From assembly GCA_002269645.1 (NCBI GenBank), contig NIVC01004994.1, positions 1-27,653 of the forward strand: a stretch of 27,653 nt of DNA, in the 5' to 3' direction. The position numbers and the translations under genes were made by a program. Within the stretch, counting starts at the first letter, position 1, and every line of letters starts with the position of its first letter. Below are positions 2,545-27,305 of this stretch, piece after piece. Under the pieces are notes generated by a model that searched no databases, was not told the origin of the DNA, and worked only from the letters and a program-made list of their open reading frames with translations. This DNA comes from Macrostomum lignano. Taxonomy: Eukaryota.

Positions 2545-3427
2545 ATACCAATGGAGCCTTCAGCACAAGAACTCACCCTCGAGCGGGCCCTTCGCGACGC
2601 ATTCGCCAAAGTGGCTGGTGCCGACCTGGAGGTTGATGCTTATGAGCTGCGCGATATTCTCAACATTGCCTTCATGAAAGGTTAGTGGACTGGATGTCGA
2701 TAGACGCATTACTCTAAAAGAAACAAAAATCATTAAGTTTTTGTTATGATTAAACCAGAGTTCAAATTCGACGGCTTCTGCCTCGAGACCTGCCGCTCGA
2801 TGGTGGCTATGATGGACGCCGACCAGTCAGGGAAGCTGGGCTTCCAGGAGTTCAAGACGCTATGGAGCAGCCTGCGACTGTGGAAGACTGCTTTCAAAAA
2901 GTTTGACGAGGACAAGTCTGGTAATTTCAACAGCTACGAGTTGCGGCAGGCCTTGAAAACAGTCGGTGAGTGCTCACAGCAACTTCGCTTTAGTAATTTT
3001 TTTATGGAAGTTTGTCCCATAAAATATTTTCCCGCATTTTATCCACACAAAATTATAATTATCGGCACGGGACCGTGGGATAAGCACTTCTATTTTTTTA
3101 TAGTGACATAATTGAGGAAACTATCTCAATCTGCACTCCAAGGCTACCGAGTAAGCAACAAGATTTTCAACTGCCTGGTGATGCGTTACGCGAATCGCCA
3201 GGGCGTCATCGAGTTTGACGACTTCATCGTCTGCTGCGTACGACTGAAAACGGTCTTTGAGACGTTCAGCGCTCAGGAGAAGACAGCGGATGGCGTTAGC
3301 GCCCTGTTCTCTAAAGACAAGGTGAGAGAAAAGACGCTTTCTCAGGGAAACTTGCTTTCTTAATGCGCTTGTAAAAACTACAAATAACTTTAAATTGCAG
3401 TTTCTAAGCGCAGCGGCTTACGTTTGA
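2545..3427 (+). CDS. Calpain (classical large subunit), 3' exons encoding the penta-EF-hand domain; upstream catalytic exons not seen in this window
   Basis: Phase-compatible GT-AG exons 2545-2680, 2759-2965, 3143-3321 and 3401-3427. They translate as ...RDAFAKVAGADLEVDAYELRDILN...FCLETCRSMVAMMDADQSGKLGFQEFKTLW...FDEDKSGNFNSYELRQAL...IEFDDFIVCCVRLKTVFETF...FLSAAAYV*. AATAAA at 3572-3577. Confidence 0.9.
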
Positions 3428-6081: not shown

Positions 6082-9000
6082 ATGATGTCAAGTGCTGTTA
6101 TTTATTACCTACTGTGGTGGCTGGCTCACTACTGTGGTTCCCAAGTCTGCCTTGGCTACCGGTGGGACTACGTCAAAATCCCCGACTTCAAAGGCACAGA
6201 GTACATCTTCCGCTACCCGATTTCCGATGCCGACCCGCCGACGTTCAACAGGTCCCTGCCGTACGCTACTTTCGCCTCCGACTGCTTGGCCCTGAAGGAG
6301 AACAACCACAGCATATTCGCTCCTCTCAACGACACTCGAGCCGTCGACGCATTCAACAGTCTGATTACCGAAAAGTGAGCCTTTGCTGATTAAATTCTTG
6401 CAAAACCTTTCAACAGTTACATCTTCTGAACTATGAGTCCAAATGAAAGAGTGCTCGCTTAAACATTCCGCAACAAAAATTTCAGCGTTACACTCAGTCT
6501 CATCGTAGACGGCAAAGACCTGTGCACTAATTGGACCTATCAGCCTTATTTTTACACAGGAGGAGACCCGGTGCCCCTTGCCTGGAACATGTTCGGTCCA
6601 TCCTTCACCCCGCCAGCTGGGCAGTGGGACAATTCCTCTGTCGACGCGAAGTTTAACCTGATAGCCTTAAACCGATTCGAGAATAAGTTTCTGTACACAG
6701 CTGTGGACACAAGCGTCGAGTTGTATCCAGTCTGCGAGTATTTCCCTCAGCGTGAGTCGCATTCTGTTAAAAAATTCAATACTTGACACCTTCTAGCACT
6801 TTTATATAAGCAAGCTACTATCTTCAGGTAATGGCTCTGCAGAACCTTACATTGCCTGCAGTCCAGCAAGCCTGGTTGCTAGCTTGGACGGAGGACCGCT
6901 GGTGAATCAGAGCTTCTGCGTCCACTCCACCAAGCTAAAGTTTAAAGACGAGTACCTGCAAGATGCCTACGAGCTGTTCTGCGAAGCCGGCAATGGCCGT
7001 CCCGCGCAAGCGGAGAGCTTAGAGAAACGAGATAAATTATGGTTTGTTTACACTGTTAGAGAAAGTTTAGGAAGTTTTTGGAAAATTTTCCCCATTCTTT
7101 GTGATATCTAAGCTCGACTGTTGAATCTTTGTGCGTAGTCTTGAAATGTATATAAATCCTTATGCGAGCTAGCATAGCATACGGTAGTATAGTCTAATAT
7201 AGTACCATATGATAGTATCTCTGCATCCTTGCAAAGACACAAGACCAGACCCAAAGACTTGAGATCTTTACAAAGACCCCAAAACCAGCCCTCGATAATC
7301 CATCAACTTACTGCTAGCTAAAACTAGCTAAAACGCCTCATTGTGACTCCTCACCGTGTACCCATTGCATTCGGGATTAGGAAATTTCTGAATGATTCAA
7401 TCATTCCGGGAACCTATGTGTTAAACGGAGGCCACCTGATGCTTGCGCTCATGTTCGACACCGGCATGACCAACTGGAGACGTCAGTCCTTCTGCCTTCC
7501 CGGGATCCCCTGCCGGTCTAGTCTCAGCAAAGAGATCCTTAGCCAAGACAAGAGCAAGGGACTTGTCGTGAGATACATCTGGAAAGACTCGTTGCCCAAG
7601 GCGGTTAAGAGAAGCAATTACCACTCCAACGAGGGTGTACTCTGTACAGGTAAGCATCTTTGATTGGAAGCACTTCTCTGTAAAGAAATTTTCACATCTT
7701 TTTCCAAAGCCATCTTTCTATTGCTGGAAGGTTTACATATAGTGAGCGTTACAACGAATAACAAAAACAAACGCTAGTAAAATACATTCAAAGTGCCTCG
7801 CCCACGGGAAGAGAAGAGAGAAGTGAGGAGATAGAACAGCTACGCCAACCTTGAGCGGGCGGGATTGCCATTGTGAAGTTATAAGGACCCGAGGGCCGGA
7901 TTAGAGAGGCCTCGTGGGCTGGAGTTTGCCGACCCCTGCTTTATAACTTTGAAAGGCATTTGCATTATGAACTTCATCATAAATATTCCTTTTGTTGCCC
8001 CTCCCAACGTCACCAGTGTAAAACCAATTTCCAAGGAACGTTGTTCGAACTGCATAGTTACGTGCCGATACGCTTACTGGGAGCATTAGGATGGACAACG
8101 TCTTCTGATACTTAATCTACTGACCCCTTGCTACGTGTAATCCAAAATATACTAACATCCCCAAAGTAGGAAACAAAAATGTCACTCCAGCTTATTTTGG
8201 GTCATCTGAGTTCTGAAGCATTATCCAATCGGTTCAGATCCTCAAAAACTACCATGAGCAAGGGGAGACGAATTTATTGTTTCCAATAAAAATGTACTTT
8301 ATGGGTATTTATTCTGAAATAGACAAACTTACTCTAGAGCTTTAAATTAAACTTATGAGCAAGTTAACTTACAATTAATTTCCACTTCAGCCATGACCTG
8401 CCCCAGTCCGCACACTGACAATCAGCTGACGGAGAGGCATCTCGTCTGCGCCTCCTGGAACAGTTCGCTCTCCGCTGCGGAGCTGCAGCTGAAGAAGCTG
8501 CCGTTTCACCAGATTGAATACACTTGCGCTCCGAACTTTGTGTTCGCTGGTTCTGAAAAAAACGGCAGCAGCATTGTGAGGCGATGCACCCAGGTACAGG
8601 TTCAGCTCGATTAAGCTGAGAATAACTCTAATTCACGTATGTTAAATTAATGACAAACAACCCTAAATGTTTAAAACAGACATAATGGAATCTCCTTAAA
8701 TTAACTTTGCAAAAATCTTTGAAATTTTTCTTACATCCATATTCGTAATTATTGATATATCAAAATAGTAACTCAAGTGACTCAATAATTCCGCCGCTCA
8801 GGACGCCGTGTGGGATATTGAAATGCCCCAATGCGTCTCGCTGCCGTGCACCCAGATGCCCGTCTACCCGAATGACACCGCAACTATCACCAGCTTCACC
8901 ACAAAGGGCGTCACATACAACTACACTGACAGCCAGCTGCTGACGCACCTCTTATCGAACGGAACATTCCGACCCGGGGACGAAATCCACATCTCCTGTG

Positions 9001-10866
9001 AATCCGGTCTCACAGGCTCCAGCCAGACCGCCTCCTGCATGCCTGGCGGCAGCTGGAGCCCCGTCACCATGGACTGCAGCCCCGGATACTGCGGCGGCGT
9101 CTCCGTCCCTCCGACCGTGGCCAACGCGCAGGCCAACGCCACCCTCGGAAACACCTCCTGGGAGGGCGCCAGCCTCGCCTTCACCTGCAACACAAACTAC
9201 AGCGTCGGCGGTCTGCCCAACGGATCTGTCAGCTTCGTCATCAGCTGCATCAACAGCAGCTGGACCTCGTTCACCCACCTGAACTGCCGACCGACCGCCT
9301 GCTCGAGTCTGCCGCCGGGACTGGGAAACTCCAGCCTGTACAGCTCGCTGAACCTCGAGCAGGAGCTGCAGACGGGTCTGCCGGCTTCCGGAGTGCAGGT
9401 CGACGACAGCCTCAGCTACGAGTGCCGGCCCGGCTTCGTTCGGACGACGCAGAACCGGCGGTTGAGCATCTTCTGCAGGCTGGGAGACCGCTGGGAGCCG
9501 GACGTTCCCGGTCCGTGCGAGCTGCTCAACTGCTCACAGCCGGATGCCGTCGTGCTGCAGCCTCAGGCCGCTCGCATGACCGTCATCAATGCATCGTTCA
9601 ACTTTGCTAACAGCTCGCACCTGCCCTACACAAGTTTGGTGCGGCTGAGCTGCGAGGAGCCGTACTTTGCCATGCCGGGCAGCAGCGAGCTGGCCGTGTG
9701 CGGACTGTCAGACGGAGATCCGCCTGCGGCAGTGTGGCGCAGCGTCGGCTCAAATGTGGCCTTCAGCTGCCGCAGTAAGCAGCTTGTCATCATTGCTTCT
9801 AATCCGAAACTTGGAGTGGTGGCTTGCAAAAGAATGCACACCAATCTGGGAAACCTCGTTCTAGATACCGGTATACAATTTTTTTATTGAACTGCCGTCT
9901 TTTTCAATAGCAAGCCATCTTCTAATCTTTTTTAGAGCACTGCAACAACAGTCTCTTAGCGCAGCTGGTGGGATTCGGACTGGTCGACTTCGCCACCAGC
10001 TCCTACACGGATCCCGACCGAGTGGCCAACGTCACCTGCCTTTCGAGCGCATTCGCTCCGCTGGCGGCGAACTTCAGTCTACAGAGCGACTCGCAGTTCC
10101 TCCTACAGGCGGTCTGCACCGCCGGTGACTGGACGGTGCTCAACCAGCTGCTGCTGCCGACATCGGAGACTCTGTGCCAGCCCAAGCCCTGTCTGTTGCC
10201 TACCAACCTGACTCGATCTACAGCCGTGCCCAGCAACAACTTGGGAAACGTGACTACGGGAGACGGTCAGGTGTACCTGCCAGTGAACAGCACCGTGGAA
10301 GTGAGGTGCTGGCCCAACAGCCGGTTTGTAGATGCGTACGCGAGCTCACGGATGGCGGCATGCGAAAAAGGTTTTTAAAATCATAAATCGTATATGTTTA
10401 CAGGAAGATTATATATAAAATTATGTTTACCACTGAAATTCCCTCAGGCTTTTCCTGGATAAAAAAGACCTCAAACTTTGTTTATAAAAACATTTTGCAT
10501 AGAAATTGTTTGTTTACAGCGAGATGACTGCGTAACATAGTGACAGTCTGAAGTGCAGCTATGGGAGCCACCAATTTAATTTTTTCAATCCAGGCCCTCA
10601 GTGGACTGCCGGCGCATCCATGGACTGCCAGCCGGTCACCTGTTCAGAAGACCACTTCGGTCCCGGAATCGATCCCAGCGTGCTGGCCGGTCCTCTGAAC
10701 GCCTCCACATTGGCAGTGGCTGCAGCCGGTCCGTTTCTCGTCGGAGACCAGGTGGCCTTCGTGTGCCGGGAGAATGTGTCTTCTGGCTCAGTTATTTTCA
10801 GCTGTCTGTCTGAACAGAACTTCACAGCGGCTTGGCGACCGGACAAAGCGCAGCCCTACTGTCCAG
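6082..10866 (+). CDS. Secreted or cell-surface mosaic glycoprotein: signal peptide, two divergent C-type-lectin-like regions, multiple Sushi/CCP repeats; 3' end unresolved
   Basis: Inferred exons: 6082-6374, 6486-6751, 6828 to about 7040 (donor uncertain), about 7328-7649, 8391-8593, 8802-9774, 9936-10370 and 10594-10866. All junctions except exon 3/4 are GT-AG and phase-compatible. Hydrophobic N-terminus; CTL-like QDAYELFCEAGNGRPAQAESLE and YPVCEY; repeated C..C..W..C Sushi patterns (ISCESG...SCMPGGSWSPVTMDC; YECRPGF...FCRLGDRWEPDVPGPC); many NxS/T sites. Confidence 0.8.
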
Positions 10867-12640
10867 GTAAATTTTTTGTCTTTTCTGTTTTTGTCATTCT
10901 TGTCAGCTGTACTTTTAGATAAAACTGGGATGGTACATTTATGGTAGTTGAGAAGGAGAAGAAATCGAGGTAAGTGTTTTTAACTGTAAGTCGATTTAAT
11001 ATTTTCATGATGATGTTGGTTTTCTGCTCTTGACATGACAGTTACACTTTGTACGCGTAGTTTTGAATAGAGGTATTACGGATGTATCAATATTATTGGA
11101 GTTAATATTTTAAATATAACAGGCCACTGTTACAAAATGCAACGATGATTTCACTTTGCAAAAATTGAATCCTGATTGTAAAATAATGAGACACGGCTTT
11201 GCTCATCATGAGTAGTCTTTTGCCTTATAATCGATTCATAGCAACTTAAAAAACATGCAGTCGATAGGTCATAAAAATGATACCAGCGTCACACAGACTT
11301 GGGCGAGAACATTGACAGCATCGTCGACTTGTCTGCGACGCCAGAATCAGCGAGCAGGCAGCTGACGAAGCGCCAAATACGCGCCTGCCATCGCTGGTAG
11401 GGCGCCTGCCGCCTCAGCAGAAGCACCTTCTGCGCAGGCGGTGAGCAGTGAGGCTGGGCACGGATGAAGTGGCCTGCCAGCTGTAGTCACCAACGGCGCA
11501 ACAAGTCAAGGGACCAGGCCTGTTTGTCAAGTGCCGCATTGGTGAGTCGCTCGTCGCCAGTCTTGAAGGCGTCGTGCAGCTGGTCCAGCGTGAGTTGCGT
11601 CAGCATGTTGTTCGAGCGTATGTGCAATATGCACATGTAAACTTAGAGATTTATGTAAGTAGTTGTACATATAAGATAAAAATGCTACAATTAGGGATGA
11701 GATGAAATGCAAATTTCAGAGGATTACAAAGGTACGGAAGATTGAAAAAGAATAAAATTACACTACGCTGGATAATCATGAATGTTTAGTGTAATTTCAA
11801 TAAATTAACCAATCACTTACTTGAATTTTCAAAAGCTTAATCTTGGGTGGGGGCAGCTGCAGAATTTCATGTAAATCCCGGTAAAGTGGCTCGCTTAGCA
11901 AGTAAAATAAAGAGAAAGCCAAAAATTAACATGTAGGTTGTTACGACGCGTTTCGCACACCAAGGTGCACCACACCGTCAGACATATTGTTTGAAACGAG
12001 AGAAAGTTGTGAATAAAGCGAATTTATAAATTATTTGACAATGTAACTAATGTAGCTAGTGAGTAAATGTTTCGTATGTAGCTACAAAGAAATTGGAGGT
12101 TGATAGGGAAGGGCGAAGACCAATGAGCAGAAAACAAACTGTAATTGAATGTGCACTGGTACGAGCTAAAATCTTTTTGCTGCTTTCATTTTCTGTTTCA
12201 GATATGGTAGCTTCACAAACATGTGCAAACCCTCCAGGGGCAAATATTAACTCCACAAGAAACATTTGATATCCAAAATCTTTGCTTTTCTGCTGCAAAT
12301 CAATGAAAAAGAGCACCATAAATTAACGAAAGTAAAATTAGCAGTACGCTAGCAAGCATTGTGGGAAGTCCTGCAGACAATGGCTTGAGAATAGGCAGTG
12401 CGTTCTGGTTTTCTGAATAAAATACAGTAAATACAGTGCACAGTACAATGTACGTGCATATGAACGATAATGTTCTTCCAGCGTCTCTGAATACGAGGCA
12501 CTACCTTGAGCACCGCGGAAAATAGTAGTGATGTGTGCAGGTCGCATTTGTAGGAACTAATTTTGATGTAGGACCCGATAGAAATCGTTTTAAATAATAC
12601 TGATACAATGTATATTTTAGACTGTACGTCGTAACTCTGC

Positions 12641-13191
12641 GGGTCCATGAGATTTGCCCGCCGAGATTTGCCCGCCGAGAATTGCCCGCTGAGATTTGCC
12701 CCGCCGAGTTTTTTTCCCGCAGAGGTTTGCTTTTTTCCTGCAGCGCATTTGGCAGCTACGAGCGTAGATTCTGTCTGCGCTGCCCCCACCCCTCCCAAAA
12801 AATATGTATTTAATACGAGCTATGCAGTTACTATCAAAACGTTTTGATCGGGAATACATGTACCTCTTTATTAAAAGCATTAAAAGCTTTAGTAAGCATT
12901 GGGGAGGCAATGCAGACAAAATCTGCCGCGTGGCCAAATGCGCTGCAGGAAAAAAGCATTGCGGGCGAACCTCGGCGGGAAATTCTCGGCGGGAAATTCT
13001 CGGCGGGCAATTCTCGGCGGGCAATTCTCGGCGGGAAATTCTCGGCGGGCAATTCTCGGCGGGCAATTCTCGGCGGGCAATTCTCGGCGGGCAATTCTCG
13101 GCGGGCAATTCTCGGCGGGCAATTCTCGGCGGGCAATTCTCGGCGGGCAATTCTCGGCGGGCAATTCTCGGCGGGCAATTCTCATGCTCCC
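12641..13191. mobile_element. Foldback/MITE-like non-autonomous DNA element with long inverted arms containing a 14-bp minisatellite
   Basis: Left end GGGTCCATGAGATTTGCCCGCC is the reverse complement (3 mismatches) of right end GGCGGGCAATTCTCATGCTCCC. Internal TTTTTTCCTGCAGCGCATTTGGC has its exact reverse complement near 12934. The centre is AT-rich. No target-site duplication seen. Confidence 0.75.
12972..13183 (+). repeat. Tandem 14-bp minisatellite (TCGGCGGGCAATTC), about 15 copies
   Basis: Read directly. It explains the 14-aa periodic pseudo-ORFs (AGNSRRAILGGQFS) in all frames. Confidence 0.97.
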
Positions 13192-14559
13192 AATTAGTTT
13201 CGCAAATGTGATAAGGTAGTACTTTTCATACTCATGCTTTCTGTTTGGGTACTACCGAGAGGTACTACCGAATAAAATCACTATATACTAGCTAAATAAA
13301 GACTTTATTGTACATGGTTTTTACTCGTATAACAATCGGCCTCCCAAATAATAACAAATCAAGAAATTTACAATAAAAAATGTCTGCAACGATTCCTGTC
13401 AACGTTGGCCAAATAAACGTCGATACAAATCCATGCGGATTATCGGACCAGGGCTGCTGTTGGTGAGTTACAATTCATCGTTTAGGGTTACAATATGCCA
13501 GAAGGGTCACATCAGTCATGAATTTATATCAATCATGGCATTAGCTCGTACATCAGCCAAGAGGTCATATCAGTCAGTTTCAAGTTTGTCATGGCGTCAA
13601 ATCAGTCGGTACATCACATCAGTGATAGATCACAGCATGGGTGGATCCGATCAGTGGTAGATAAAATCAGTGGTGGGTCATATAATTCATGAGATCATAT
13701 TATTGATTTATGAGTTAGAAAGTCAAGCAGAATCAGAAGGTCAAGCAGATGACACCAGCTTCTAATTTCTGTTTGACCCATATAAAACCTCTAACTAACC
13801 TGCTTTTTCCTTATATTTGCTTAACAGCTGTGTTATCCTGCGTCAACCAGGGTCGGGTCCGAAATCGGGAATTCCTGATGCTCAAGGTCGGCAAGTGGCA
13901 ACTACACTCGACAAAGTCCATCTGCAACTGAAGGCAATTGAAGTTATCTTCGATTGAAATTGATATTATGAATCAAGTGCAGAGGACGCACTTTTTTTTC
14001 CAAATCTCACGCTCGTACATGGATTCCAAACTTGTTAGCCTACTATCAGCAGGCTATGGGTATTTTTCTTTTTATATGTAATTTTCCCAGAATTCATTCT
14101 ACTTGTAGTCATTATACGCTCCTAACATAGGCGCGGTTTTTGCTACTTTTAGGGTCATAAATCATGGCTTGTGAGCATGCCTGACAGCCACCTGCGCCTT
14201 ACTTTTAGTGTTGAGGCTGGCGCCAGATGGTCTGTGGGGATGCGGGCGGTTGGCTTTTTTCTCACCACCATTTTTGACAGGCTATCAGATTTATGAGGTC
14301 AGGGCCTATTGTTATTGTTCACTCAAGCGTTTGACAGCTCTGACAGCTTTACCCCTTTTTTACCCCTAAAAGTACTTTGGGATTAGCGATTAGCGATTTT
14401 TCTTAACCATCTTCACTTTCAACTCAATAAGACCTTTCTAATGCATATTTTTTCATTAATTTTTTTGTAATTCCTACGCGAAAGGTCATAAATCATTATG
14501 TAGCGATTTTGAGTGATTTATGGTGACACCTGGCGTATTTTTATGGCCCCGAGGGAACT

Positions 14560-15550: not shown

Positions 15551-15553
15551 CAT

Positions 15554-15882
15554 AGGCTCGCCACCGCAAGAATCCCCTGCACAAGTCCCCTCTGTCCCTG
15601 CATGGCCAATGCGATCAAGTCCCAGCAGTGTCCCTTATCATCGGCTATGACTTCGATATTGACAGCAAAAAGACACTAGTTGGCAGGTAAGTGCAAAGCC
15701 CCTTCTAGTCGGAAGCCCGATTTCGAAAGTTCCGGTTTGGTGAGCCAGGGCGCACGGGCTGGTGGCAGCGGGGTGGTTAGTCTGCGGATTAGCTGACCTC
15801 TACCTTCAAAATTCTCCCTGCTTGTCTCTCGCTGTCCCTCTCTTAGCTATAGGACCTAGACTGCTCGCCACACGATCAAGCT
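15554..15882 (+). repeat. ~330-bp repeat, left copy of an inverted pair with 17833-18160
   Basis: Its reverse complement aligns over the full length with 17833-18160 (roughly 85% by eye), e.g. GATCGCATTGGCCATGCAGGGACAGAG and CACCAAACCGGA. Confidence 0.9.
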
Positions 15883-16519
15883 GTGTCGAAGTGCTGAAAT
15901 TTCGACTCGATGATGCAAAACTGGGTATTACGATAAAAAATAGATTGTTGGTTGTCACTTTTTTCGTTTTGTCTGGTGTGCAGCTCTTTAAAGGCATGAA
16001 TATATAGTCTTATTTTAGACGTATTTAGTCTATGAGCTTCATATTAGTAGTATAGTGCAGTCAGAAGCGACTTTATATTCAAGTACGAGTAGGCTATCTG
16101 AAATACAATAATATTATTCCTTTTCAAAGCAAGCCTGTTATCGAAAATATTTCGAAAAGCCAGTTTGCCTAGCGAGTAGGACTCAGATTTGAGCATCTGA
16201 TTAGGAATCTCCCGACATTGAATCACCTTCATTGAGAATCTAGAATTTTCAATCCAATGCAGATTGTATCCGGGTTATCAGAAAACGATCAGCTTTGAGA
16301 AAATTTCGGAATCATCCAATTCTATTGGGTTACCTGCCACTTGGGTTACGATCTACCTGCAGAAAAGTAAGCTCATGATTCCTAGCAACAGGCAATAACA
16401 GTTGTTAAACAAACGCTTGGGTGATATTTTCGATAAAAGCAGAAGCTCTCTTTCCAGAAGCGCTTTCCAACCCTGATCGCAATTTCACATTCAAAGTACG
16501 ATTGTTTCTAAACTGCACA

Positions 16520-17249
16520 ATGAAACTCTTCGTTCAATTCAATCTGTTGCTAATATTTGCGCTAGCTCAATCGAAGGGGAGTGATTTAACCCAGCTATTC
16601 CACCTGATCCACGGATATCTGTGCATCAATGACGAGTTTATCGAGATTGCTTTCAGTAGTCGCTCGGAAATTGGTTGCGCTTTCGAATGCTACAACAACG
16701 AGCGTTGTCAGGCTTTCAGCTTGGCTGACGGTCCGTGCCAGCAAGTCGGTGAAGAACTGCAGCTGCACAAGGAGAGGTCAGGTGATGCTGAAGCAGCAGC
16801 CGGGACTCCGGCCGGGCACACTATGTCCGTCTGGCTACGTCGACGACCTGTGCGGGGTGAAGTACAAGCTGCACTCTGACGAACAGGACTACTGGTGGCC
16901 AAGCAGGCAGAGATGCGAGTCAGAGAGCGGTCTGGTGATCATGGCCGACGTGATGGACGCGGCTGAGATGGACCACGTTGATAAGATCTATGACAACCAG
17001 AGTTCAAGTGCAAATTTCTGGCTCGGTGGCTACCAACCGGCTGGCAGTCAGGAGAAGCGAGGCGGCTGGTACTGGGTCGGCTGCAACATCACTGTTGACG
17101 ACAGTCTGTGGAATGCTCGAGAGCCTGACAACTACGGCCCAGTCGGCGAGAATGTCATCGGACGAGCCAGGCATTCCAGGCTGTCAGACTTCTGGGAGTC
17201 CGTGAATAAGTTTAATGTGTTATGCGAGTGCCTCTCACCATTCGAATGA
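16520..17249 (+). CDS. Secreted PAN/apple + C-type lectin protein, apparently intronless, with one frame break (sequencing error or pseudogene)
   Basis: ATG at 16520 gives the signal peptide MKLFVQFNLLLIFALA and a PAN-like SRSEIGCAFECYNNERCQAFSLADGPC. A different frame carries the CTL domain (CPSGY...QRCESE...FWLGG...WYW...WNAREPDN...VLCEC) to TGA at 17249. AATAAA at 17680. Confidence 0.75.
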
Positions 17250-17832
17250 GCTGGTGGGCATTGACCGCACACGATTATATAAAAAACAGCTTTTTTGTTC
17301 GATAAATGTTTTGTTTCTATTATATTTTAAATGGAGCCCGCCTGTTTTTAAACCTAACTCTGAGTTTTGGCGACCTTTAGCTATAAAACTTTGCTGTGAA
17401 ATTTTGTACTTTTATGTTTGAACGGGGTTCAGCCCGTGACGCACTTCGTTTTTCGATACTAGCGGCTCAAAAGATTACCAAGGATATTTTTTTAAAGTTT
17501 GTTATAGTACGAATGTTTTTTTACTATTTTATTGTATTTTCACTGGTTATTTTTGACGTTTAAACATGTATGTGTTTGTTTTGTTTTTTGTTTTTATTTG
17601 TGTTTTTGCTGAACTAAATTACCCTTTTATTTCCCTCAGCTAAATGTATACTATGTACTTTCTATAACTGTCACTTATCAATAAAGCAGCCTCTCGTTAA
17701 TTTAATTTTTACGTTTAATAGCAAGTTGATGGGCTCGGCCTTTTTAAGCCTGTAGCTTCGGGCCTCAGAACTCAGAAATGAATCACTGAGAGCTCTGGCC
17801 TCTCACTCCTGTCAGATGGTCAGCCCCGTGGT

Positions 17833-18160
17833 AGCTAGATTGTGGGCGAGCAGCAAGGTCCTATAGCTAGGAGAAGACAGCGAGAGACAAGCAGGGAGAA
17901 TTTGAAAGGTAGAAATTAGCTAACCCACGGATTAACCAACTTGCTGCCACCAGTCCGTGCGCCCCGGCTCACCAAACCGGAGCTATCGAAATCGGACTTC
18001 CGACTAGAGGAGTACTGCACTTACCTGCCATCTAGTGTCTTTTAGCTGTCTAAATCTCGAAGTCATAGCCGAATAGAAGGGACGCGGCTGGGACTAAGAT
18101 CGCATTGGCCATGCAGGGACAGAGAGGACTTCTGCAGGGGGTTCTTGCGCTGGCGAGCCT
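17833..18160 (-). repeat. ~330-bp repeat, right (inverted) copy of 15554-15882
   Basis: Direct alignment to the reverse complement of the left copy. Confidence 0.9.
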
Positions 18161-18681
18161 CTGTACACTACTAAATGTACTATTTCAACACCAAATTCAC
18201 AGAAGTACATGCAGTATAAGTATAGCTAGATGAGTCAGCGGAATGGGCAGAATTGCGTTGGGATGATGTCGCAGAAGATGTTGCGCCAGTATATGCCACA
18301 GCCATCTTGAAAAATAAATGGGGTGCCAGCACTGCCTACATGTGTTGGGACTTTTCTGGGCTGACGGGACTACAGTACATGTATCCTGGTCTCCGCATAT
18401 GTACTACAGTGTACATGTAAGTACATGTGGTAGGGTAACATCTACATGTACGTGTGCACTTTGTAGATCGTACAGAGTACAGCATTCAGCACGGGTGTTA
18501 TTGCACGGCTGCAAGTGCTTGGGTTGCACAACTGCACTAATTTAGCTAGCTATGAGCCTTGGCTACCGGCAGATAGGTCCTCTGATTGGTTTGGTGAGAG
18601 GCTCTCTTGACCTGCTTAACTGGGTGCACCCTTTGTCTGACCCCTTCCTAGGTAGTCTGATAGGATTTGCACTTTTGCTTA

Positions 18682-19516
18682 TGTCATGAATGTGTTATGA
18701 CAATGTGCTCTTTGCTTAGTTGCTGCACCGGGCCAGTGGGCCGTCCTCTCCCCCTCCCCCCTCCTTAGATATTTTCTGACTCACTCACCTGCACTTCTGC
18801 GCGTGCGTACCCCTCCCCTCCCTGCCTAGACCTTTTCTGTTGAGTCAACCCCCCATGCTCTGCGTGCGACCCCCCCCCCTGTGCGACCCCGCCCCATTAT
18901 TTTGTTAGCTTTGCTGCCCCGCCCCTGTTTGTGATTGGCTGCCAGTCCCAGTCTGCCGTGCTGCGCCCCGGCGATTGGCTGGTACAGCTCATGCGTTGCC
19001 TTGGCTGATGTCTAAGCCCCCTTTTCTGCCTTTATCCCGCGCCCTCAACCCCCAGTTTGCTGCCTATTTATTCGGCCCCCTTGAGACCCCATTCTCGTCG
19101 TCGTCGTGGCTCCTCGGCGATTGTGCCAGCGTTGGTTGCTGAATTGCTATTCCTCGCAGAATTGCTAGACAAATATATAAGTAAAGAATATCGAGATCAC
19201 CACTGCTCTGACGGCGCTGTTTCTTGTACGACTGAAATCGCGGCTGGTAAGCCTTCCAATTTGCACGTCATTTGGGTCTGCATCTGTACTAGGCACCTTA
19301 GAGGGATTAAGTGCGTCGTACGCCGGTCCCACCCCAAGCAGCTCTGCGTCGTACGCGAGTCTGTAGGCTGTCGTGCGTCGTACGCTCGAGCAGCCTAGTC
19401 CCGACGGACACCGCGTCGTACGCGTGTCAGTGGAGGACCGCAGCCAGGGTCAGTACACGAACCCGGGTCTGGGAAAGGGGCACGAAAGGACCGAGCCCTT
19501 GAGCCCCATCATCACA
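18682..19516 (+). repeat. 5' LTR (835 bp)
   Basis: TGTCATG...CATCACA. It differs from the 3' LTR by one substitution and five single-base indels in C runs. Confidence 0.97.
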
Positions 19517-19519
19517 AAT

Positions 19520-19536
19520 TGGCATCCTTGGTGGGA
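19520..19536 (+). other. Primer-binding site TGGCATCCTTGGTGGGA
   Basis: Starts with TGG 3 nt after the LTR. Its complement reads as a tRNA 3' end (T-stem CCCAC, 7-nt acceptor strand, discriminator G, CCA). tRNA identity is uncertain (Arg- or Asn-like). Confidence 0.85.
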
Positions 19537-19624
19537 CCCTGCGCTGTGGAAGACTAAGCAAGGAACAAAGCTCGAGGCGCGGAATATTGTGAGAAATTAA
19601 GGTTAGAAACTGTGACGCCGTGGT

Positions 19625-20680
19625 ATGGATGCTGGAGGTGCTGCTGGAGGTGCTGCTGGAGGTGCGGCTGGGGGTGCGGCTGGAGGTGCTGCTGGAGGTG
19701 CTGCTGGAGCCTTTGGTGTTAATGATCTGGTCGCCGCTTTGACTGCCCAGATTCAGCAGAACATGCAGCAAGCGGGGGCTCTCAGGATTCAGAGGCCGGT
19801 GAAGTATGCTCCAGGAATGAATTTCGTGAAGTGGTTGAGGCTCTTCGTAGCTTATTGCGATGCCATGCAGATTCCGATGCAGAATCGGCGCGCTCAGTTG
19901 CTCAGCAATCTAGACTTCAGCACATTCCAAGTTGTCGACAACATGAACCTTGGGGACGACTTGCAGTTCGAAGAATTTACCCAGGCCTTGAGGGATAGGT
20001 TCACTATGCACCGTACCGTCGTCGACTACCGCACAGAACTGAGCAATAGAGAGCAGAGCGAGAAGGAGTCGGTAGAAGATTTCTCTGAAGCTGTGATTGA
20101 GTTGGTCGCAAACGCCTTTCCTGATGCGCCTGCCGATGTGCGCGATGATCTTGCGAAAGAGCGATTTATGCGAGGCGTCCGTGCGGGGGTGGCTGTGCGG
20201 GAGCGATTGTACATGAGCCAGCCGGAGACCTTAGCAGACGCGATGCGTCTAGTGCATCAGCTGGAAGCGGCGGTTAGGGCAAGTCACGGTCCACCAGGTC
20301 AGGGATCAAAAAGAGCTACCGTCTGTGCTGTCACAGCTGAGACTAGAAATGAGGCTTCCGAAAGCAGTGAGGTCGAGATGCTTCGAAAACAGCTTGCGGC
20401 CATGGAGATGCGAATGAAAGAGATGGAGGAGCGGAGGTCTGGAGAAGCGGAAGAGCCGACCCCGGCGAGTCGGAAGGCTGTGCAGTGTTTTTCGTGTCGA
20501 GAGTGGGGCCATATCTCATCAAAGTGTCCCAAGAAAACCAGCCAGACAAGTGGAAACGGGAAATCGCCAGTACGATGTCACAAGTGCAACGGTGAAGGCC
20601 ACCTATCCTTCAAGTGTCCGAAGTCGGGAAACGGGCCGAGGGGACCGACCGGGGAGAGTCGGGACCCTGCCAGGAAGTGA
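19625..20680 (+). CDS. gag: Gag polyprotein (351 aa)
   Basis: Retrotransposon-gag-like core (FVKWLRLF...QSEKESVEDF...KERFMRG) and two CX2CX4HX4C knuckles (CFSCREWGHISSKC, CHKCNGEGHLSFKC). Confidence 0.95.
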   Translation: MDAGGAAGGAAGGAAGGAAGGAAGGAAGAFGVNDLVAALTAQIQQNMQQAGALRIQRPVKYAPGMNFVKWLRLFVAYCDAMQIPMQNRRAQLLSNLDFSTFQVVDNMNLGDDLQFEEFTQALRDRFTMHRTVVDYRTELSNREQSEKESVEDFSEAVIELVANAFPDAPADVRDDLAKERFMRGVRAGVAVRERLYMSQPETLADAMRLVHQLEAAVRASHGPPGQGSKRATVCAVTAETRNEASESSEVEMLRKQLAAMEMRMKEMEERRSGEAEEPTPASRKAVQCFSCREWGHISSKCPKKTSQTSGNGKSPVRCHKCNGEGHLSFKCPKSGNGPRGPTGESRDPARK

Positions 20681-23600
20681 AGTCTCCCAGGGGCGAGGAA
20701 CCGGTGTTGCTCACTAACTCTGTAAATAAATCCAAGTGCGTCTCTGGTGATGGGAATTCAAAGAGCAACCTGGTTCATGAGGCGTGTTCGTCGGTATCAA
20801 CGGAGCCTCTGACAGTTTTTATTTCCGGTGCGGTTTCCGGCAAGCCAGTGGCTCTGCTGTTAGACAGTGGTGCGAGTGTGTCAGTGCTGAGCTGTGATGT
20901 TTTCCTGAGGCTGCCGCAAGAGGTGAGGGAGAGACTGACTGCAATGGACGGTTCCCTTTCAACGGCCAATGGAGGTGCGATGAGGATGAGAGGCTGCATT
21001 GTGCTGGACGTGGAGATTGGCGGCGAGCGGTGGTCAGCGAATTTCTTCGTAGTGGACGGATTGCGTTATGATGTCATTCTCGGGTCCGAATTTTTCAAAC
21101 AGCATCGTTGCGTCATCAACTATTCGGAGTTTGTCTTTCGAGTGGGCGATGTTAGAGTTCCGATACGGCAGAAAGGCGAGCTGCCCGTGGTGTGTCGAAT
21201 CAAAGCCGAGACAACGGTATTTCTGGAACCGGCGCAAGAAGTGGTCATGCCAGCCAGGGTAGAGAAAAAGGGCGCAAGAAACTGCGGATCGGTCGGCATA
21301 ACGGAAGAAAAGCCGGTGAAGGCCGCTGAGAAGGATTTGGCGATGGCTCGAGCTCTGGTAGCGCCCGGTGTGGATGGACGGCTGCCGATGAGATTGCTGA
21401 ATACGTCCAGTTGTAGGAAGAGGGTCAAGAAAGGAGAGACGATTGGCTGGTTTATTCCTTTGGAACCGAACGGAGGTATCAACGTGGTGCGCTTGGACGA
21501 CGACGTAGAGGCCAAGAATGAAGCGGAGGCATGGGACCCGATCGAAGAATTCCGCGAGTGGGGTTCATGTGGCCTGTCGGAGGAGGAGGAAGCCGACTTC
21601 AGGGAGCTGATTTCCCAACATCGGGCTGTCTTTGCTAAGGACTCCAAGGATCTCGGCTGTACGACGGTGATGAAGCACGAGATCGACACTGGAGATGCCA
21701 GGCCTGTGAAAGAAGCGGCGAGGCGGATTCCCCCGTACCTGCGGCAGGAAGTGGACAAGGAGTTGGATGACTTGCTGGAAGCTGGGAGAATCAGCGAGGT
21801 TCAGTCCCCATGGTGCTCTCCGGTGGTGTGCGTGAAAAAGAAGGACGGTTCCCTGAGGTTCTGTTGTGACTACCGGAAACTGAATGAAGTGACCAAGAAG
21901 GATGCAGTGCCGTTGCCCAGGACAGATGACCTGTTGGAGAGCCTAGGCGATGCCAAGATTTTTTCGACCATGGACATGCAGTCGGGATACTGGCAGATGG
22001 CGGTGGAACCCAGCGACAGACTGAAGACGGCCTTTGGCGTTTCACACCGGGTACAGCAGTACGCCTGGAACGTTATGCCATTTGGATTGACAAATGCACC
22101 GGCTTCATTCAGCCGGCTAATGAATGTGGTGTTGGGGAAGTTGTGCTGGAAGACGTGTTTGGTGTATCTGGACGACCTGCTAGTGTGGTCAAGAACGGTG
22201 GAGGAGCACCTGGAACGGTTGCAAACGGTTTTTCGACGGTTGCGAGCAGCGAACATCAAACTGAAGCCGAAGAAGTGCGCATTCCTGCTGAAGTCAGTGA
22301 CCTTCCTGGGACACGTAGTGTCAGCTGATGGGATCGCCACGAGTCCAGAAAAGATTGCCGAAATTCGTGACTGGCCAACTCCGAAGAATGTGAAGGAAGT
22401 AAGGTCATTCCTGGGACTGTGCGGGTATTACCGGCAATTCATCGCAGATTTTTCCCGCATTGCTGAGCCGATGCTGCGACGGACCCGACATGATTGCCCG
22501 TGGAGCTGGGATGAGGAGTGTCAAGCCGCATTCGAGGCCCTGAAGGAAAGGTTGCAGGGATCTGAGGTCATGGCGTTTCCAAACTTTGCGGAGGACGCTG
22601 GAGAATTCGTTTTAGACACAGACGGTAGCACAAAAGAAGGAATTGGCGCTGTGCTTTCGCAGGTGCAGAAAGATGGGAGTGAGAAGGTAATAGCTTACGG
22701 AAGCAGGACGTTGTCGCGAGAAGAACGGAATTACTGCACGACACGAGTCGAGTTGCTGGCCGTGGTGTTTTTCGTACAGAAGTTTCGTTATTACCTGATG
22801 GGGCGAGAGTTTCTAGTGCGCACCGATCACAGCAGCTTGAAGTGGCTGCATTCGCTGCGGGACGTAGAAGGACAACTGGCCAGATGGCTGGAACTCTTGG
22901 CTCCGTACAGGTATCGCATCGAACATCGTCCGGGAGTGAAACATCAACACGCGGACGCTCTCTCCAGGAAGCCACGTCGGCGCCATCAAGGAAGCGAGAG
23001 TTGTCCTGGATGTGCACAAGAGCAGATCGGCGTGAACGCGTTGGGATTGCAGAAGTGGACCTCGGAGGAGATCAGAGAGAGCCAGAAGATGGACAGCGAC
23101 ATTCGTCAGGCGATGGAGCTGCTGGCTCACGGCGACGGAGAGATAACCGAAGAGCATTTGCGGCGCATATCACCGACGGCAAGGAGGATTGTCGAAAGAC
23201 GTCGTGACCTTGAGGTGTCGGACAGTGAGGTGTTGCTGTGTCATACGGTCAGTAGACGTCAGCCCAAGTGGTGTTGCCACGGAATATGCTGAGAGCGGTG
23301 CTGGAAGAAGCTCATGGTGGACGGAGTGGAGGGCACGTTGGGATTTTCAAGACCAAGGAGAAGGTGCGGCAATCGTTTTGGAGGCCGGGACTTGGCCGCG
23401 AGGTCGAAGAGCACGTAAAAGCCTGTTTGGACTGCACCAAGGCCAAAGCTGGCAAGAAACCAATTGCACCGATGGAGCCGATTCCGAGTTCAAGCCCATT
23501 CGATATCGTGATGACAGACGTCATCGGGCCGTTGCCACGGAGCAAGAAAGGAAACTTCTACATCCTCACGGTGCAAGATGCGTTCTCAAAGTGGCCTGAC

Positions 23601-24820
23601 GCTTATGCCATCCGGAACCAGAAGGCGGCAACGATCGCAAGGGTGCTATTCGAACGCTGGATTGCCAATCACGGGTGCCCCCGGGTACTTCACTCAGACC
23701 AAGGAAGGAACTTTGAGTCGGGGATCGTCAGGAAGCTGTGCGAGCTGTTGGGTGTGAAGAAGACCAGGACGAGCGCCTACCACCCGAGTGGCAACGGACA
23801 GGTGGAACGATTTAACGGGTTCCTGAAGAACAGTTTGCGCACGTATCTGGTACAGAAGGGTCAGAACGCCTGGGAGGAGTACCTGCCAAGTGCCTTGATG
23901 GCTTATCGATCGACGGTCCAGGCGTCCACCGGTTACACGCCCTACTACATGCTGCATGGTCAGGAGATGCCGCTGGGATTCGAACCAGAGGACCTTAGGC
24001 GAAAGACGGACAGCTATCCCTTGTTTGTGCAAGAGATTCAGCAGAACCTGCTTCATGCCCATGAACACGTTCGAGAAGGGCGCGAGACGGTTCAGCGACG
24101 CCAGAAAATGAACTACGATCGGAAAGTGAAGGGCAAGGCGATTCAGAGGGCGACTCTGTCTTGCTGTACTATCCGTGCTTGGAGATGGGAGAGAAAAGCA
24201 AATTCCATATCAACTGGCGCGGCCCAGTGAAGGTCCTGGAGAAGCTGTCAGATGCGTTGTATCGAGTGCAGGATCCGACACAGCCGCAGAAGACCAAGGT
24301 GGTGCACTTCAACAATCTCCGGCCGGTTCAGGTTCAGACGGAGGCGGCAGACGATCAAGAGACAGGAGAGGAAATTGGGAGGGCCAGTTCGGGAAAAACC
24401 AGGCCGCGACGTGGTAATTCCGCTGCTGGACGAAGCCGAAGGCAGAGAGTGCAACGGGGCGAGACCCAGAGGTGGACCGCAGCGCGAGGGCCGCAGGACC
24501 AGGAATCCGAGCAGGAAGATGAAGAGTTTGAAGATCTTCAGCTGCGGTTTCAAGATCCAAGAGATCACGCTCCACCGGACACCCGAAATCTGGCCGAAGA
24601 CTGTGAGCCCGGACCTGAGCGTCGAGAAGCAGACGATGACGAAGAAGAGCACGACGATGAGGCGCGGTACGACGAGGAGCAGGACGAAGAGGATGAGGCA
24701 GAGCCGAACGACGCCAACGTACCCGAGCAGGAAGTGAGGACGGCACAGGAGGAAGCAGGGCGACCAAGACGTCTGCGGCGACCGCCAGATCGGTTTGGGG
24801 TCCCGGTGTACCACTACTGA
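20614..24820 (+). CDS. pol: Pol polyprotein (protease, RT, RNase H, integrase), with two single-base frame breaks at about 23264 and 24146
   Basis: LLDSGAS protease; LRFCCDYRKLN and VYLDD RT; LDTDGS and TDHSSLKW RNase H; HHCC, D..D-35-E (MTDVIG, HSDQG, QVERFN) and a GPY/F-like WRGPVKV integrase. An acidic tail ends RRLRRPPDRF...HY*. Confidence 0.95.
20626..20668 (+). promoter_or_regulatory. Programmed -1 ribosomal frameshift signal (G GGA AAC plus downstream stem-loop)
   Basis: The heptamer is in gag frame within the gag/pol overlap, and pol is in the -1 frame. After a 6-nt spacer comes the stem AGGG-GA-CCGAC / GTCGG-GA-CCCT. Confidence 0.85.
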
Positions 24821-24918
24821 AGAAGGGTCCGGTGTCGGCGCTTGGATAGCCAAGGGGGAAGGGAGGTACATGTCGTGCGTGTCTCATTGCTCATCGGAGT
24901 TAGGCCGGACTGTTACAG

Positions 24919-25557
24919 ATGGCGGACCTCTACGAGTGTCTTGGAGTGCAGCTGTGGGCGTCTGCGGCACAGATTCGGAAAGCGTTCTACGGTCGAGCAC
25001 GCGAACTGCACCCTGACAAGAGCGCAACAGAGGAGACGCGGAAGAGATTCCAGGAGTGCGAAGAGGCGTACCGAATACTGTCGTGTCCGTTCCTTAGAAA
25101 GCTGTACGATATCTTTGGAAATGCTGTTCGTGACCGGGATGAGATGCTTCGGCTCGCAGAAGGGATGTTAGAGGATGAAGACATGCCCGACGATCTCCGA
25201 GAAGAGATAGAAAGACTACAAGAGAGCGACCGATTAGCTGAGGAGGCGTACGAGAGAGAACAGGCGAGGAGGGATGAGGAGCACGTCAAGATGGAGGCAA
25301 GTGAGGAGGCCTCAGACGATGAGCAGGACGAAGAGATGAACGAGGCGAGTGAGACACTGCCGGAGGAGTACGAGGTCGAGAAGGTCTTAGGAGTACGAGT
25401 CACGGAGCGAGGAGCGGAGTATCTGCTGCAGTGGGCCGGTGTAGAGGAGCTTGAGACGTCATGGGAAGCGGAGGAAGATTGTGCCGGATGTAGAAACCTG
25501 ATTGAAGAATACCTGCAGAGAGCGTACCGGCTTCAGACAGACCGTGCCGACCAGTGA
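24919..25557 (+). CDS. Additional ORF (ORF3): J-domain (DnaJ) + acidic linker + chromodomain, 212 aa as read
   Basis: N-terminus MADLYECLGV...IRKAFYGRARELHPDK...RFQECEEAYRILSCPFLRKLYD is a complete J-domain with HPD. C-terminus EYEVEKVLGVR...EYLLQWAG...TSWEAEEDC...LIEEY is a chromodomain. Confidence 0.9.
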   Translation: MADLYECLGVQLWASAAQIRKAFYGRARELHPDKSATEETRKRFQECEEAYRILSCPFLRKLYDIFGNAVRDRDEMLRLAEGMLEDEDMPDDLREEIERLQESDRLAEEAYEREQARRDEEHVKMEASEEASDDEQDEEMNEASETLPEEYEVEKVLGVRVTERGAEYLLQWAGVEELETSWEAEEDCAGCRNLIEEYLQRAYRLQTDRADQ

Positions 25558-25903
25558 CCGTCGCGGAACTGGAGAACGTAGGACCCAGTCGGAAGAAACT
25601 GCACCAGGCAATGCGAAGGGCGACCCGTGGGGCATCTTTGAGGTGCTGCTAGCCCTGAAGGGGAAGTGCGCCACTGCCTCGGTGGATTTCAAGGAATTCG
25701 GTCCGGAGTTGATGCTGCAGATCCTGGGCTACTTGGAGCGAGACGGTCGCAAGTATCCGGGGCACGGAGTTCGTCGGTGGAGTCGCCAAGCGTGTCAAGC
25801 TGTCTACATGTCGGTGATGGTGGTGTTCCCGCTGTTCGACCTGCGACGCCAGGGTTTGGTCCTGGGTGCCCTCCGTAGGCTGTGGGATTCGTGCTCTGAC
25901 TGA
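25554..25903 (+). CDS. Probable C-terminal continuation of ORF3 (unrecognised, likely helical domain), or a separate small ORF
   Basis: Protein-like frames VTVAELENVGPSRKKLHQAMRR and GDPWGIFEVLLALKGK...LGALRRLWDSCSD* join ORF3 if one base is restored in each of two short homopolymers. Confidence 0.5.
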
Positions 25904-26464
25904 GGCTATGTCTTCCTAGGGACTTTGGGGCTAGGGACTTTGCAGTGCAGACCCAGGGACAGCGGAGCGGAGATGGACCGGCCTTAGCGGGTGCTGACGG
26001 AGCGACACGGCTGTGCAGCAACCGCAGGACTCGACGACCAGCGCAGAGCGACCAGAGCAACCGGCGACAGTAGCGACAGGGAGACGAGGCACCAGAGCGA
26101 CGGCCGTACTCGGCGGGATGCAGGGAAGCAGTGCTAGTATTACTTGTGAGGGTAAATGTTTGACGGTTTCATTTTTTTGTTTTTTGTTAACATTTAGCGT
26201 TTTTTTTGAACTTCAGCGTTTTTGTTAAAGTGAGTTTTTCCCAAAATTTGCGTTTGCTTCCCAATGATGCGTACTCACTATCCTATGTTTGAAGGTTTCT
26301 TCGTCATTTTTAAACGGTATAATCACTGCGGTTTTGTTTTTTGTTCGAACTAGTTGCCATGCGAGTCCAAAATATTTTTCAAATGCGGTTTGTTCCTCTG
26401 TTCAATTTTTTTGTTATAGTAGCATCATTTCAATATTCGACTTTTCGAACTCGAACTTTTGTCT

Positions 26465-26475
26465 AGGGGAGGGAG
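26465..26475 (+). other. Polypurine tract AGGGGAGGGAG
   Basis: All-purine run abutting the TG of the 3' LTR, preceded by a T-rich stretch. Confidence 0.9.
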
Positions 26476-27305
26476 TGTCATGAATGTGTTATGACAATGT
26501 GCTCTTTGCTTAGTTGCTGCACCGGGCCAGTGGGCCGTCCTCTCCCCTCCCCCTCCTTAGATATTTTCTGACTCACTCACCTGCACTTCTGCGCGTGCGT
26601 ACCCCTCCCCTCCCTGCCTAGACCTTTTCTGTTGAGTCAACCCCCCATGCTCTGCGTGCGACCCCCCCCCTGTGCGACCCCGCCCCATTATTTTGTTAGC
26701 TTTGCTGCCCCGCCCCTGTTTGTGATTGGCTGCCAGTCCCAGTCTGCCGTGCTGCGCCCCGGCGATTGGCTGGTACAGCTCATGCGTTGCCTTGGCTGAT
26801 GTCTAAGCCCCCTTTTCTGCCTTTATCCGCGCCCTCAACCCCCAGTTTGCTGCCTATTTATTCGGCCCCCTTGAGACCCCATTCTCGTCGTCTTCGTGGC
26901 TCCTCGGCGATTGTGCCAGCGTTGGTTGCTGAATTGCTATTCCTCGCAGAATTGCTAGACAAATATATAAGTAAAGAATATCGAGATCACCACTGCTCTG
27001 ACGGCGCTGTTTCTTGTACGACTGAAATCGCGGCTGGTAAGCCTTCCAATTTGCACGTCATTTGGGTCTGCATCTGTACTAGGCACCTTAGAGGGATTAA
27101 GTGCGTCGTACGCCGGTCCCACCCCAAGCAGCTCTGCGTCGTACGCGAGTCTGTAGGCTGTCGTGCGTCGTACGCTCGAGCAGCCTAGTCCGACGGACAC
27201 CGCGTCGTACGCGTGTCAGTGGAGGACCGCAGCCAGGGTCAGTACACGAACCCGGGTCTGGGAAAGGGGCACGAAAGGACCGAGCCCTTGAGCCCCATCA
27301 TCACA
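26476..27305 (+). repeat. 3' LTR (830 bp)
   Basis: Near-identical direct repeat of 18682-19516, followed by the CTTA duplication. Confidence 0.97.

Follow-up and report, generated by a model that had tools for sequence, protein, structure and literature searches.

A J-domain gene carried behind pol by LTR retrotransposons of the flatworm Macrostomum lignano, a candidate adaptor for host Hsp70

INTRODUCTION

J-domains bearing an HPD motif activate Hsp70 on clients that are held by their other domains, and the T antigen of polyomaviruses has a J-domain. The gene described here, ORF3 of a Macrostomum lignano LTR retrotransposon, resembles the T antigen and other viral J-proteins in that a parasite J-domain is joined to targeting modules and could aim host Hsp70; nothing is held in common beyond the J-domain, and the analogy is one of how the proteins may work. 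The viral J-domain matches listed in our searches came from giant viruses, phages, and a baculovirus, with no retroelement among them.

LTR elements with captured ORF3s other than env are already known (PMC5408684). Those of bdelloid rotifers (GDSL esterase and DEDDy exonuclease) are, like the flatworm gene, captured cellular domains in a separate third ORF after pol; they are likewise family specific and modular, typically come from spliced messages, and have an unproven function (PMC5408684). They differ in being enzymes with intact catalytic residues, whereas flatworm ORF3 is a predicted Hsp70 co-chaperone joined to an unnamed domain, and in showing no significant departure from neutrality within a genome, whereas flatworm ORF3 is under purifying selection (PMC5408684). 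That paper contains no mention of DnaJ.

Chromoviruses are LTR elements that, like the present one, encode an HP1-like chromodomain (PMC3605345). Their chromodomain is the C terminus of integrase, whereas that of the flatworm element is inside a separate ORF, between the J-domain and a domain that we call X (PMC3605345); the reverse transcriptase (RT) of the flatworm element appears closest, among classified families in the 150 best matches, to a Gmr1/Osvaldo family. The planarian giant gypsy elements Burro and GYPSM1 likewise come from flatworms and carry a heavy load of regulatory domains of host origin (PMC6431247), but these are BIR, BCL2-like, MATH, ankyrin, and env domains placed in a giant polyprotein or an upstream ORF, and PMC6431247 mentions neither DnaJ, chaperones, chromodomains, nor TatD.

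Chromatin precedents for a J-protein come from plants, i.e., SUVH1/3-DNAJ1/2, a mark reader with J-proteins in anti-silencing (PMC6711733), MBD5/6-SILENZIO-HSP70, a mark reader with a J-protein on silenced chromatin (PMC8616336), and PKL-JDP (bioRxiv 10.64898/2026.09.14.751395). In these systems, a mark reader coupled to a J-domain alters transcription of marked loci, which is the likeness to ORF3; they are host encoded and mostly consist of two proteins, whereas the flatworm protein is a single transposon-carried polypeptide of an animal. VANC21 of VANDAL21, also a plant example, is, like ORF3, a transposon accessory protein, with anti-silencing demonstrated for VANC21 and suggested here for ORF3 (PMC8616336). 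It differs in belonging to a DNA transposon, in targeting DNA methylation, and in having no J-domain (PMC8616336). The ORF3 family is apparently undescribed: outside Repbase, Dfam, and GyDB, searches of the full-text literature, judged mostly from their listings, turned up no paper on an LTR element whose ORF carries a J-domain or a TatD domain.

RESULTS AND DISCUSSION

Structure and classification of the element

We analyzed a 27,653-nt stretch of the M. lignano genome (contig NIVC01004994.1; here, the window). It contains a Ty3/gypsy LTR retrotransposon of 8.6 kb on the plus strand (18682 to 27305), and all of the element features described below lie on that strand. The 5′ LTR (18682 to 19516; 835 nt) and the 3′ LTR (26476 to 27305; 830 nt) have TG...CA ends and are one mismatch and five gap columns apart, with a 4-nt target-site duplication directly before the former and directly after the latter. 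A primer-binding site that begins with TGG (19520 to 19536) lies just 3′ of the 5′ LTR, and a polypurine tract (26465 to 26475) adjoins the 3′ LTR. The gag frame (19625 to 20680; 351 aa) has a weak Retrotrans_gag/PNMA match and two zinc knuckles. The pol frame (20682 to 24820), which has an approximate start and overlaps the end of gag, encodes protease, RT, RNase H, and integrase (H2C2, rve, and p58 C-terminal) followed by an acidic tail, so that the Pfam domain order is gag-PR-RT-RNaseH-IN; this copy of pol is broken near 23260 and 24150. ORF3 (24919 to 25557; 212 aa) starts 98 nt past the pol stop and upstream of the 3′ LTR. The original prediction, made by a model from the letters of the window, had placed an ORF behind pol and ahead of the 3′ LTR in a gypsy element that it called young, and both its coordinates and the youth of the element hold.

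The window integrase ends in p58_C, the acidic tail, and a stop, and the Pfam Chromo match in the window is confined to ORF3. The element is no chromovirus, as the C terminus of its integrase carries no chromodomain. RTs of ORF3 carriers are 59 to 66% identical to the window RT, and loci of id38, a Gmr1/Osvaldo family in the usage of PMC12801592, are 57% identical; id38 would thus be the nearest classified RT among the 150 best matches. The integrase tree has no resolution at its base. No loci of the Mag family id115 were among these 150 matches. Lineages B and C (L031 and L032; see below) have one common primer-binding site just after the 5′ LTR, which we take to be the tRNA-Lys type of Osvaldo; that of the window element differs.

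Domains of the window ORF3

ORF3 begins with a J-domain (24919 to 25110) that matches Pfam DnaJ over residues 3 to 64 (E = 1.4e-16; 60.7 bits; cutoff, 27.8), has its HPD at residues 31 to 33, and adopts a modeled J fold with Z scores of up to 11.9 against solved J-domains. A four-helix J-domain combined with HPD is thus present in ORF3 and is lacking in family F, described below. A helical extension common to the element ORF3s (25111 to 25220) leads into an acidic linker (25221 to 25362) of low confidence in the model, with Asp and Glu making up 44% of residues 71 to 150. The chromodomain (25369 to 25521) matches Pfam Chromo over residues 151 to 201 (E = 4.2e-13; 49.4 bits; cutoff, 25.1). The complete HPD-bearing J-domain, the strongly acidic linker, and a GC content as high as that of pol (0.558 for ORF3; 0.546 for pol) had all been called correctly, and both Pfam assignments score above their cutoffs.

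The HP1-like character of the chromodomain stood in part. Among solved structures, Swi6 and HP1/CBX proteins match it best, but its cage positions are Y/W/V versus Y/W/Y in HP1 (PMC3605345 for the definition of the three-aromatic cage), so that two of three aromatics are kept. The cage is Y/W/V in lineage A, to which the window element belongs, Y/W/L in the database protein P0002, and complete (F/W/F) in A2. With V or L in place of the third aromatic, methyl-lysine reading is doubtful in the window family and in P0002. The database protein P0001 of M. lignano is identical to the window ORF3 over residues 1 to 207; it has no Pfam match to a chromoshadow domain, and its C-terminal domain is predicted to be all-helical. 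Its predicted domains set ORF3 outside the HP1 family. Neither DnaJ_C nor a zinc-finger family was matched by Pfam in the 328-aa form of ORF3, which by domain composition is not a class A or B Hsp40. No transmembrane anchor was found (best 19-residue hydropathy, 1.04 to 1.49 in seven of seven ORF3s), env families were absent from Pfam scans of the ORF3s, and by these predictions the gene is not env. UniProt and NCBI label the protein as hypothetical or J-domain containing and nothing more.

Frame breaks, the long form, and copy number

The original prediction had described an intact ORF. The frame of the window copy, however, breaks near 25540 and again near 25610, and 17 of 30 fetched loci read through to 326 to 328 aa, adding a C-terminal domain of ~110 aa, domain X (25570 to 25903), which is out of frame in the window and in frame in those 17 loci. 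The frame break had kept domain X out of sight of the original prediction. A second contig with the 3′ flank of the window (L157/L005) carries the long ORF3, and contigs from all four public runs inspected (three guessed to be RNA, one unlabelled) disagree with the window at the break sites of both ORF3 and pol; an assembly error is thus the most likely source of the short 212-aa form.

An integrase tail upstream and an LTR downstream flank ORF3 in 28 of the 30 loci. The LTR end was matched exactly in 10 of 21 copies checked, yielding eight distinct flanks. Since the M. lignano assembly is redundant (PMC12801592), locus counts exceed the true copy number. ORF3 is a multicopy gene within LTR elements and is not limited to the window copy.

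Distribution across element lineages

A gene with J and X follows pol in seven lineages (A, B, C, D, E, F, and G/H/I), and the integrases of the other lineages are 46 to 55% identical to that of the window. The intact ORF3s have a common architecture in which a J-domain, marked by a distinctive motif in helix IV, is followed by the helical extension, the acidic linker, and X. The core unit is, to judge from these predicted architectures, J plus X rather than J plus chromodomain. The original prediction had taken the J-chromodomain fusion for the unit; that fusion is confined to A, A2, and P0002, and the chromodomain is a lineage-specific insert that six of seven lineages lack, whereas J plus X recurs behind pol in all seven.

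In the genome, the lineage B ORF3 has 20 near-full matches, of which 19 are stop-free, and lineage C has 20 matches to X at 99 to 100%. HPD is invariant in eight of eight aligned ORF3s and retained in six of seven lineages. The exception is family F, in which the J-domain scores below the Pfam cutoff and HPD is lost, yet 11 full-length stop-free copies occur among 53 matches, which suggests that recruitment of Hsp70 is dispensable in some cases.

The ORF3s of F and G/H/I end in a TatD-like domain rather than a chromodomain. Pfam TatD_DNase scored 36.7 bits in H (cutoff, 27) and 23.1 bits, under the cutoff, in F. Relative to YjjV and a second TatD protein, two His residues are replaced by Arg, the E-x-D motif is replaced, and one Glu is kept. 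The replaced residues are presumably metal ligands, and the add-on is predicted to be catalytically dead.

The distribution of the chromodomain bears on the idea that ORF3 is a trans-acting integration tether, in which X binds integrase and the chromodomain directs insertion toward marked chromatin, i.e., a split version of the chromovirus arrangement. The window integrase has no chromodomain of its own, and chromodomains of chromovirus integrases have been linked to targeting (PMC3605345), both of which suit a tether. We consider it distinctly improbable nonetheless: six of seven lineages have no chromodomain, retention of the J-domain would be left without a reason, and the first four bases past the 3′ LTR vary among the eight distinct insertions.

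Two proteins from other samples, P0090 and P0047, found in an HMMER scan (best 150 of 15,313 matches), have J plus X without add-ons and join D in the J tree. Protein searches returned ORF3 relatives only from M. lignano, plus P0002. No ORF3 was found in viral contigs, and no relatives of P0047 were found in metagenome contigs; P0090 matched 48 loci in the latter through a generic J-domain only, none past residue 73. P0105 (263 aa) has a J-domain and a chromodomain but no X and was judged unrelated; its J-domain is ordinary and its chromodomain has a full cage, and it could be an independent fusion or a gene-calling join.

Two apparent alternative ORF3s proved to be nested insertions. The frame in L086 (1398 to 3500) is an RT, and that in L085 (1026 to 2684) looks like a LINE endonuclease, which is our assignment of its motif. 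In relatives of lineages A and B, these LINE-type frames directly follow pol. Two rearranged loci were also noted. In L035 (1664 to 4960; P0199), a deleted element has RT/RNase H running in frame into the J-X gene as a 1,099-codon frame. In L034 (2211 to 8897), a 3.35-kb tandem duplication (99.6%) of RT-IN-J gives rise to an odd J-IN-J database protein (P0005).

Domain X

Domain X, the sole part found in every intact ORF3, was modeled as a five-helix bundle (pLDDT, 86.7; pTM, 0.79) and has a conserved basic Gly/Arg loop. No Pfam family was common to more than 1 of 11 members. Foldseek (E = 0.001; PDB and viral models) gave no match, and an Atlas search gave no usable match. The best structural match (VIA) had a Z score of 8.5 and an rmsd of 3.5 over 104 aligned residues; the matches were weak, scattered, helical bundles. 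X did not resemble the DnaJ-X domain of P0123, and a DNAJC9-type protein did not resemble ORF3 beyond the J-domain. From the model, X is an unnamed, well-folding domain to seek in other genomes.

The ubiquity of X raises the question of whether X alone carries the selected function, e.g., by inhibiting a host restriction factor or acting as its decoy, with the J-domain, chromodomain, and TatD-like domain as helpers that are gained and lost. The other parts do degenerate here and there: family F has no HPD, the TatD-like domain has no metal ligands, and the cage is incomplete in A. The J-domain, however, is the best-conserved part in most pairs, and its HPD survives in six of seven lineages, and we regard X acting alone as rather improbable.

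Origin and selection

In a tree of 68 columns, 13 element J-domains formed one clade relative to 20 host J-domain loci (support, 99/97). The result depends on the sampling and on those 68 columns, since A and E had fallen outside the main group in an earlier tree with non-host outgroups. We surveyed host J-domains and chromodomains by eye among the best 150 candidates of 336 and of 291, respectively. No host locus had both domains together among the 150 DnaJ and 98 Chromo matches, and in the non-element contigs with both, more than 200 kb lay between the two, among the matches listed. A recent capture of a host gene of the same architecture, which the original prediction had named as a competing explanation, accordingly has no candidate source among the matches listed. 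No chromodomain donor stood out either. Identity over 14 other host loci was 16 to 36%, and a 26-locus chromodomain family was rejected as the donor, being an integrase-chromodomain gene with 26% identity.

The dN/dS of ORF3 was 0.055 to 0.435 in 18 of 18 measurable comparisons, and 5 more were saturated with pN < pS (Nei-Gojobori on single in-frame pieces; some of the 23 rows depend on one another, and a few span frame breaks). Integrase, as a control, gave 0.18 to 0.94 in 8 measurable comparisons of 11. Between A and A2, pN/pS was below 1 in every domain, including the chromodomain (0.49). The J-domain was the best-conserved part in most pairs (dN/dS of 0.10 over residues 1 to 86 in B/B2; 0.06 to 0.09 in H/I). 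ORF3 thus departs from neutrality and is under purifying selection. The single J clade and the low dN/dS show ORF3 to be an old, selected accessory gene that was captured long ago. The original prediction of an element-encoded accessory gene is borne out by its multiple copies, its position inside LTR elements, and this selection.

The same data bear on whether ORF3 might be a captured host mRNA that is passively carried and has no role. Passive carriage would suit the loss or excision of ORF3 in L089, L090, L091, and L150. We nevertheless consider it very improbable. The selection data, with dN/dS below 0.45 in every measurable comparison, largely refute it; in addition, the element J-domains form a clade apart from host J-domains, the frames stay open across lineages with saturated synonymous sites, and no host J-plus-chromodomain locus was among the matches listed.

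A J-domain was also seen in a long open frame of up to 1,449 codons at five loci, two of them on one contig (L148, also C575, C1744, and C1901). That of L148 groups with host J-domains, and the frame could belong to another mobile element with a J-domain.

Expression

A candidate splice acceptor (24900 to 24918) ends in a CAG that adjoins the ORF3 ATG. YAG adjoins the ATG at five of nine ORF3 starts (A, B, B2, D, and D2; three independent lineages), against a background of 15 in 413 ATGs of the same elements. At the other starts, the motif is AAG in A2, and an AG lies 1 to 16 nt upstream in C, E, and F. This acceptor motif suggests that ORF3, like env in other elements, is probably expressed through splicing to a subgenomic RNA. 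ORF3s generally come from spliced messages, according to PMC5408684. No splice joint was seen in contigs of the four public runs that span the whole stretch; contigs are unreliable for splicing, and this absence counts neither for nor against a spliced message.

Some LTR elements of M. lignano exploit the heat shock response (PMC12801592). The window element contains no heat shock elements, either canonical or with one mismatch, and we found no link to the heat induction in PMC12801592; its heat-induced family id38 has no ORF3. The text of PMC12801592 mentions neither ORFs nor chaperones. Row 695 of its supplement 2 is a J-domain-only transcript that is mildly raised by heat (log2FC, 1.2) and has a Pfam score of 65.2; the lineage B ORF3 scores 65.3.

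Exchange and loss of ORF3

The integrase tree (100/100) and the X tree (96/97) agree in placing family F with G/H/I. Between close relatives, ORF3 and pol tell different histories. B and B2 are 92% identical in integrase and 69% identical in ORF3 (nucleotides), and A and A2 are 94% identical in RT/pol, 68 to 74% in J, and 86 to 90% from late X onward. This disagreement suggests that ORF3 cassettes have been swapped between related elements.

Integrase trees gave no resolved clade of ORF3 carriers. The id38 clade is separate, has no ORF3, and comprises many full-length copies. The ORF3-less loci L089, L090, and L150 are nested among carriers, and L091 keeps the TatD tail alone. J, X, and the chromodomain were absent from 10 candidate noncarrier loci beyond one 24-residue match (E = 0.006). 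On this distribution, ORF3 is dispensable in cis.

Exchange and loss weigh against a reading in which ORF3 serves the element itself as a chaperone adaptor, bringing Hsp70 to its Gag particles, RT complex, or postintegration intasome for assembly or dismantling, with the chromodomain merely placing it on the chromatin that the intasome reaches. A core of J plus X with no chromatin reader in most lineages would fit such a role; the basic Gly/Arg loop of X could bind nucleic acid, and J-domain proteins occur widely among other viruses, e.g., giant viruses, phages, and a baculovirus. If ORF3 partnered Gag or integrase, it would be expected to follow their history, yet it is exchanged or diverges independently of pol, and close relatives without ORF3 exist, including the id38 clade. 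We consider a role in the element's own machinery unlikely, if worth keeping in view.

Proposed function

Our preferred reading, to which we give somewhat less than an even chance, keeps the anti-silencing role that the original prediction had put forward among others: as an adaptor, ORF3 would direct host Hsp70 to a silencing complex of the host that sits on the chromatin or RNA of the element. The J-domain, with its intact HPD, would recruit and activate host Hsp70. X, which alone is never missing from an intact ORF3, would hold the client. The optional modules, the chromodomain in A and the dead TatD-like barrel in F to I, would aim ORF3 at chromatin or nucleic acid; their presence is observed, and binding by them is supposed. 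ORF3 would then loosen or dismantle the silencing complex, and it would act in trans, so that elements without ORF3 could ride along.

A host silencing complex is a likelier target than the particle or intasome of the element itself for three reasons: ORF3 moves without regard to pol, relatives that have lost it could be complemented in trans, and both add-ons are chromatin or nucleic acid folds. We also counted in favor of conflict with the host that ORF3 diverges far more than the adjoining pol in close relatives and has no membrane segment. Against the silencing-complex reading, the chromodomain is absent from six of seven lineages, its cage is incomplete in the window family, HPD is lost in F, and the integrase trees show no resolved carrier clade. 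The fast exchange of ORF3 could reflect recombination rather than conflict. The host J-protein precedents, taken as analogies, run both ways, toward silencing and toward anti-silencing, which weakens the comparison. More tentatively, and with less confidence than in the adaptor role itself, we suggest a modular counter-defence in which the captured J-domain recruits Hsp70, X grips the silencing complex, interchangeable heads re-aim the protein, and cassettes are traded by recombination.

To our knowledge, transposon-encoded silencing suppressors are rare and almost unknown in animals. If the counter-defence reading is true, ORF3 would stand as the first anti-silencing factor that a transposon encodes and a chaperone powers. 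The gene would tie Hsp70 biology to the transposon-host conflict from the side of the parasite. A J-domain accessory gene selected across at least seven element lineages is a concrete, small, soluble protein, and the ORF3s supply their own controls, with and without HPD, with a complete and an incomplete cage, and with and without an add-on. M. lignano has transgenesis and LTR reporters (PMC12801592). A further consequence is that many annotated "DnaJ genes" of its genome are retrotransposon cargo.

Other features of the window and genome

An integrase with a C-terminal chromodomain was found at L115 (1849 to 3009), with RT absent nearby and 26 matching loci; we take this gene to be Polinton-like. 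Within the window, long inverted repeats (15551 to 18163; 87 to 92%; several arms) surround ~2.3 kb that contain a PAN-like ORF (16520 to 16879) and an overlapping lectin-like ORF (16629 to 17249; no Pfam match). The unit is possibly a DNA transposon carrying a piece of a host gene. A MITE-like unit (4437 to 4926) has 35-nt inverted repeats that are 97% complementary with 420 nt between them. Tandem arrays of a 23-nt unit (102 to 1108) and of a 14-nt unit plus an inverted partner array (12630 to 13225) are also present, as are host exons of an EF-hand protein and a Sushi-repeat protein (2746 to 3111 and 8823 to 10922).
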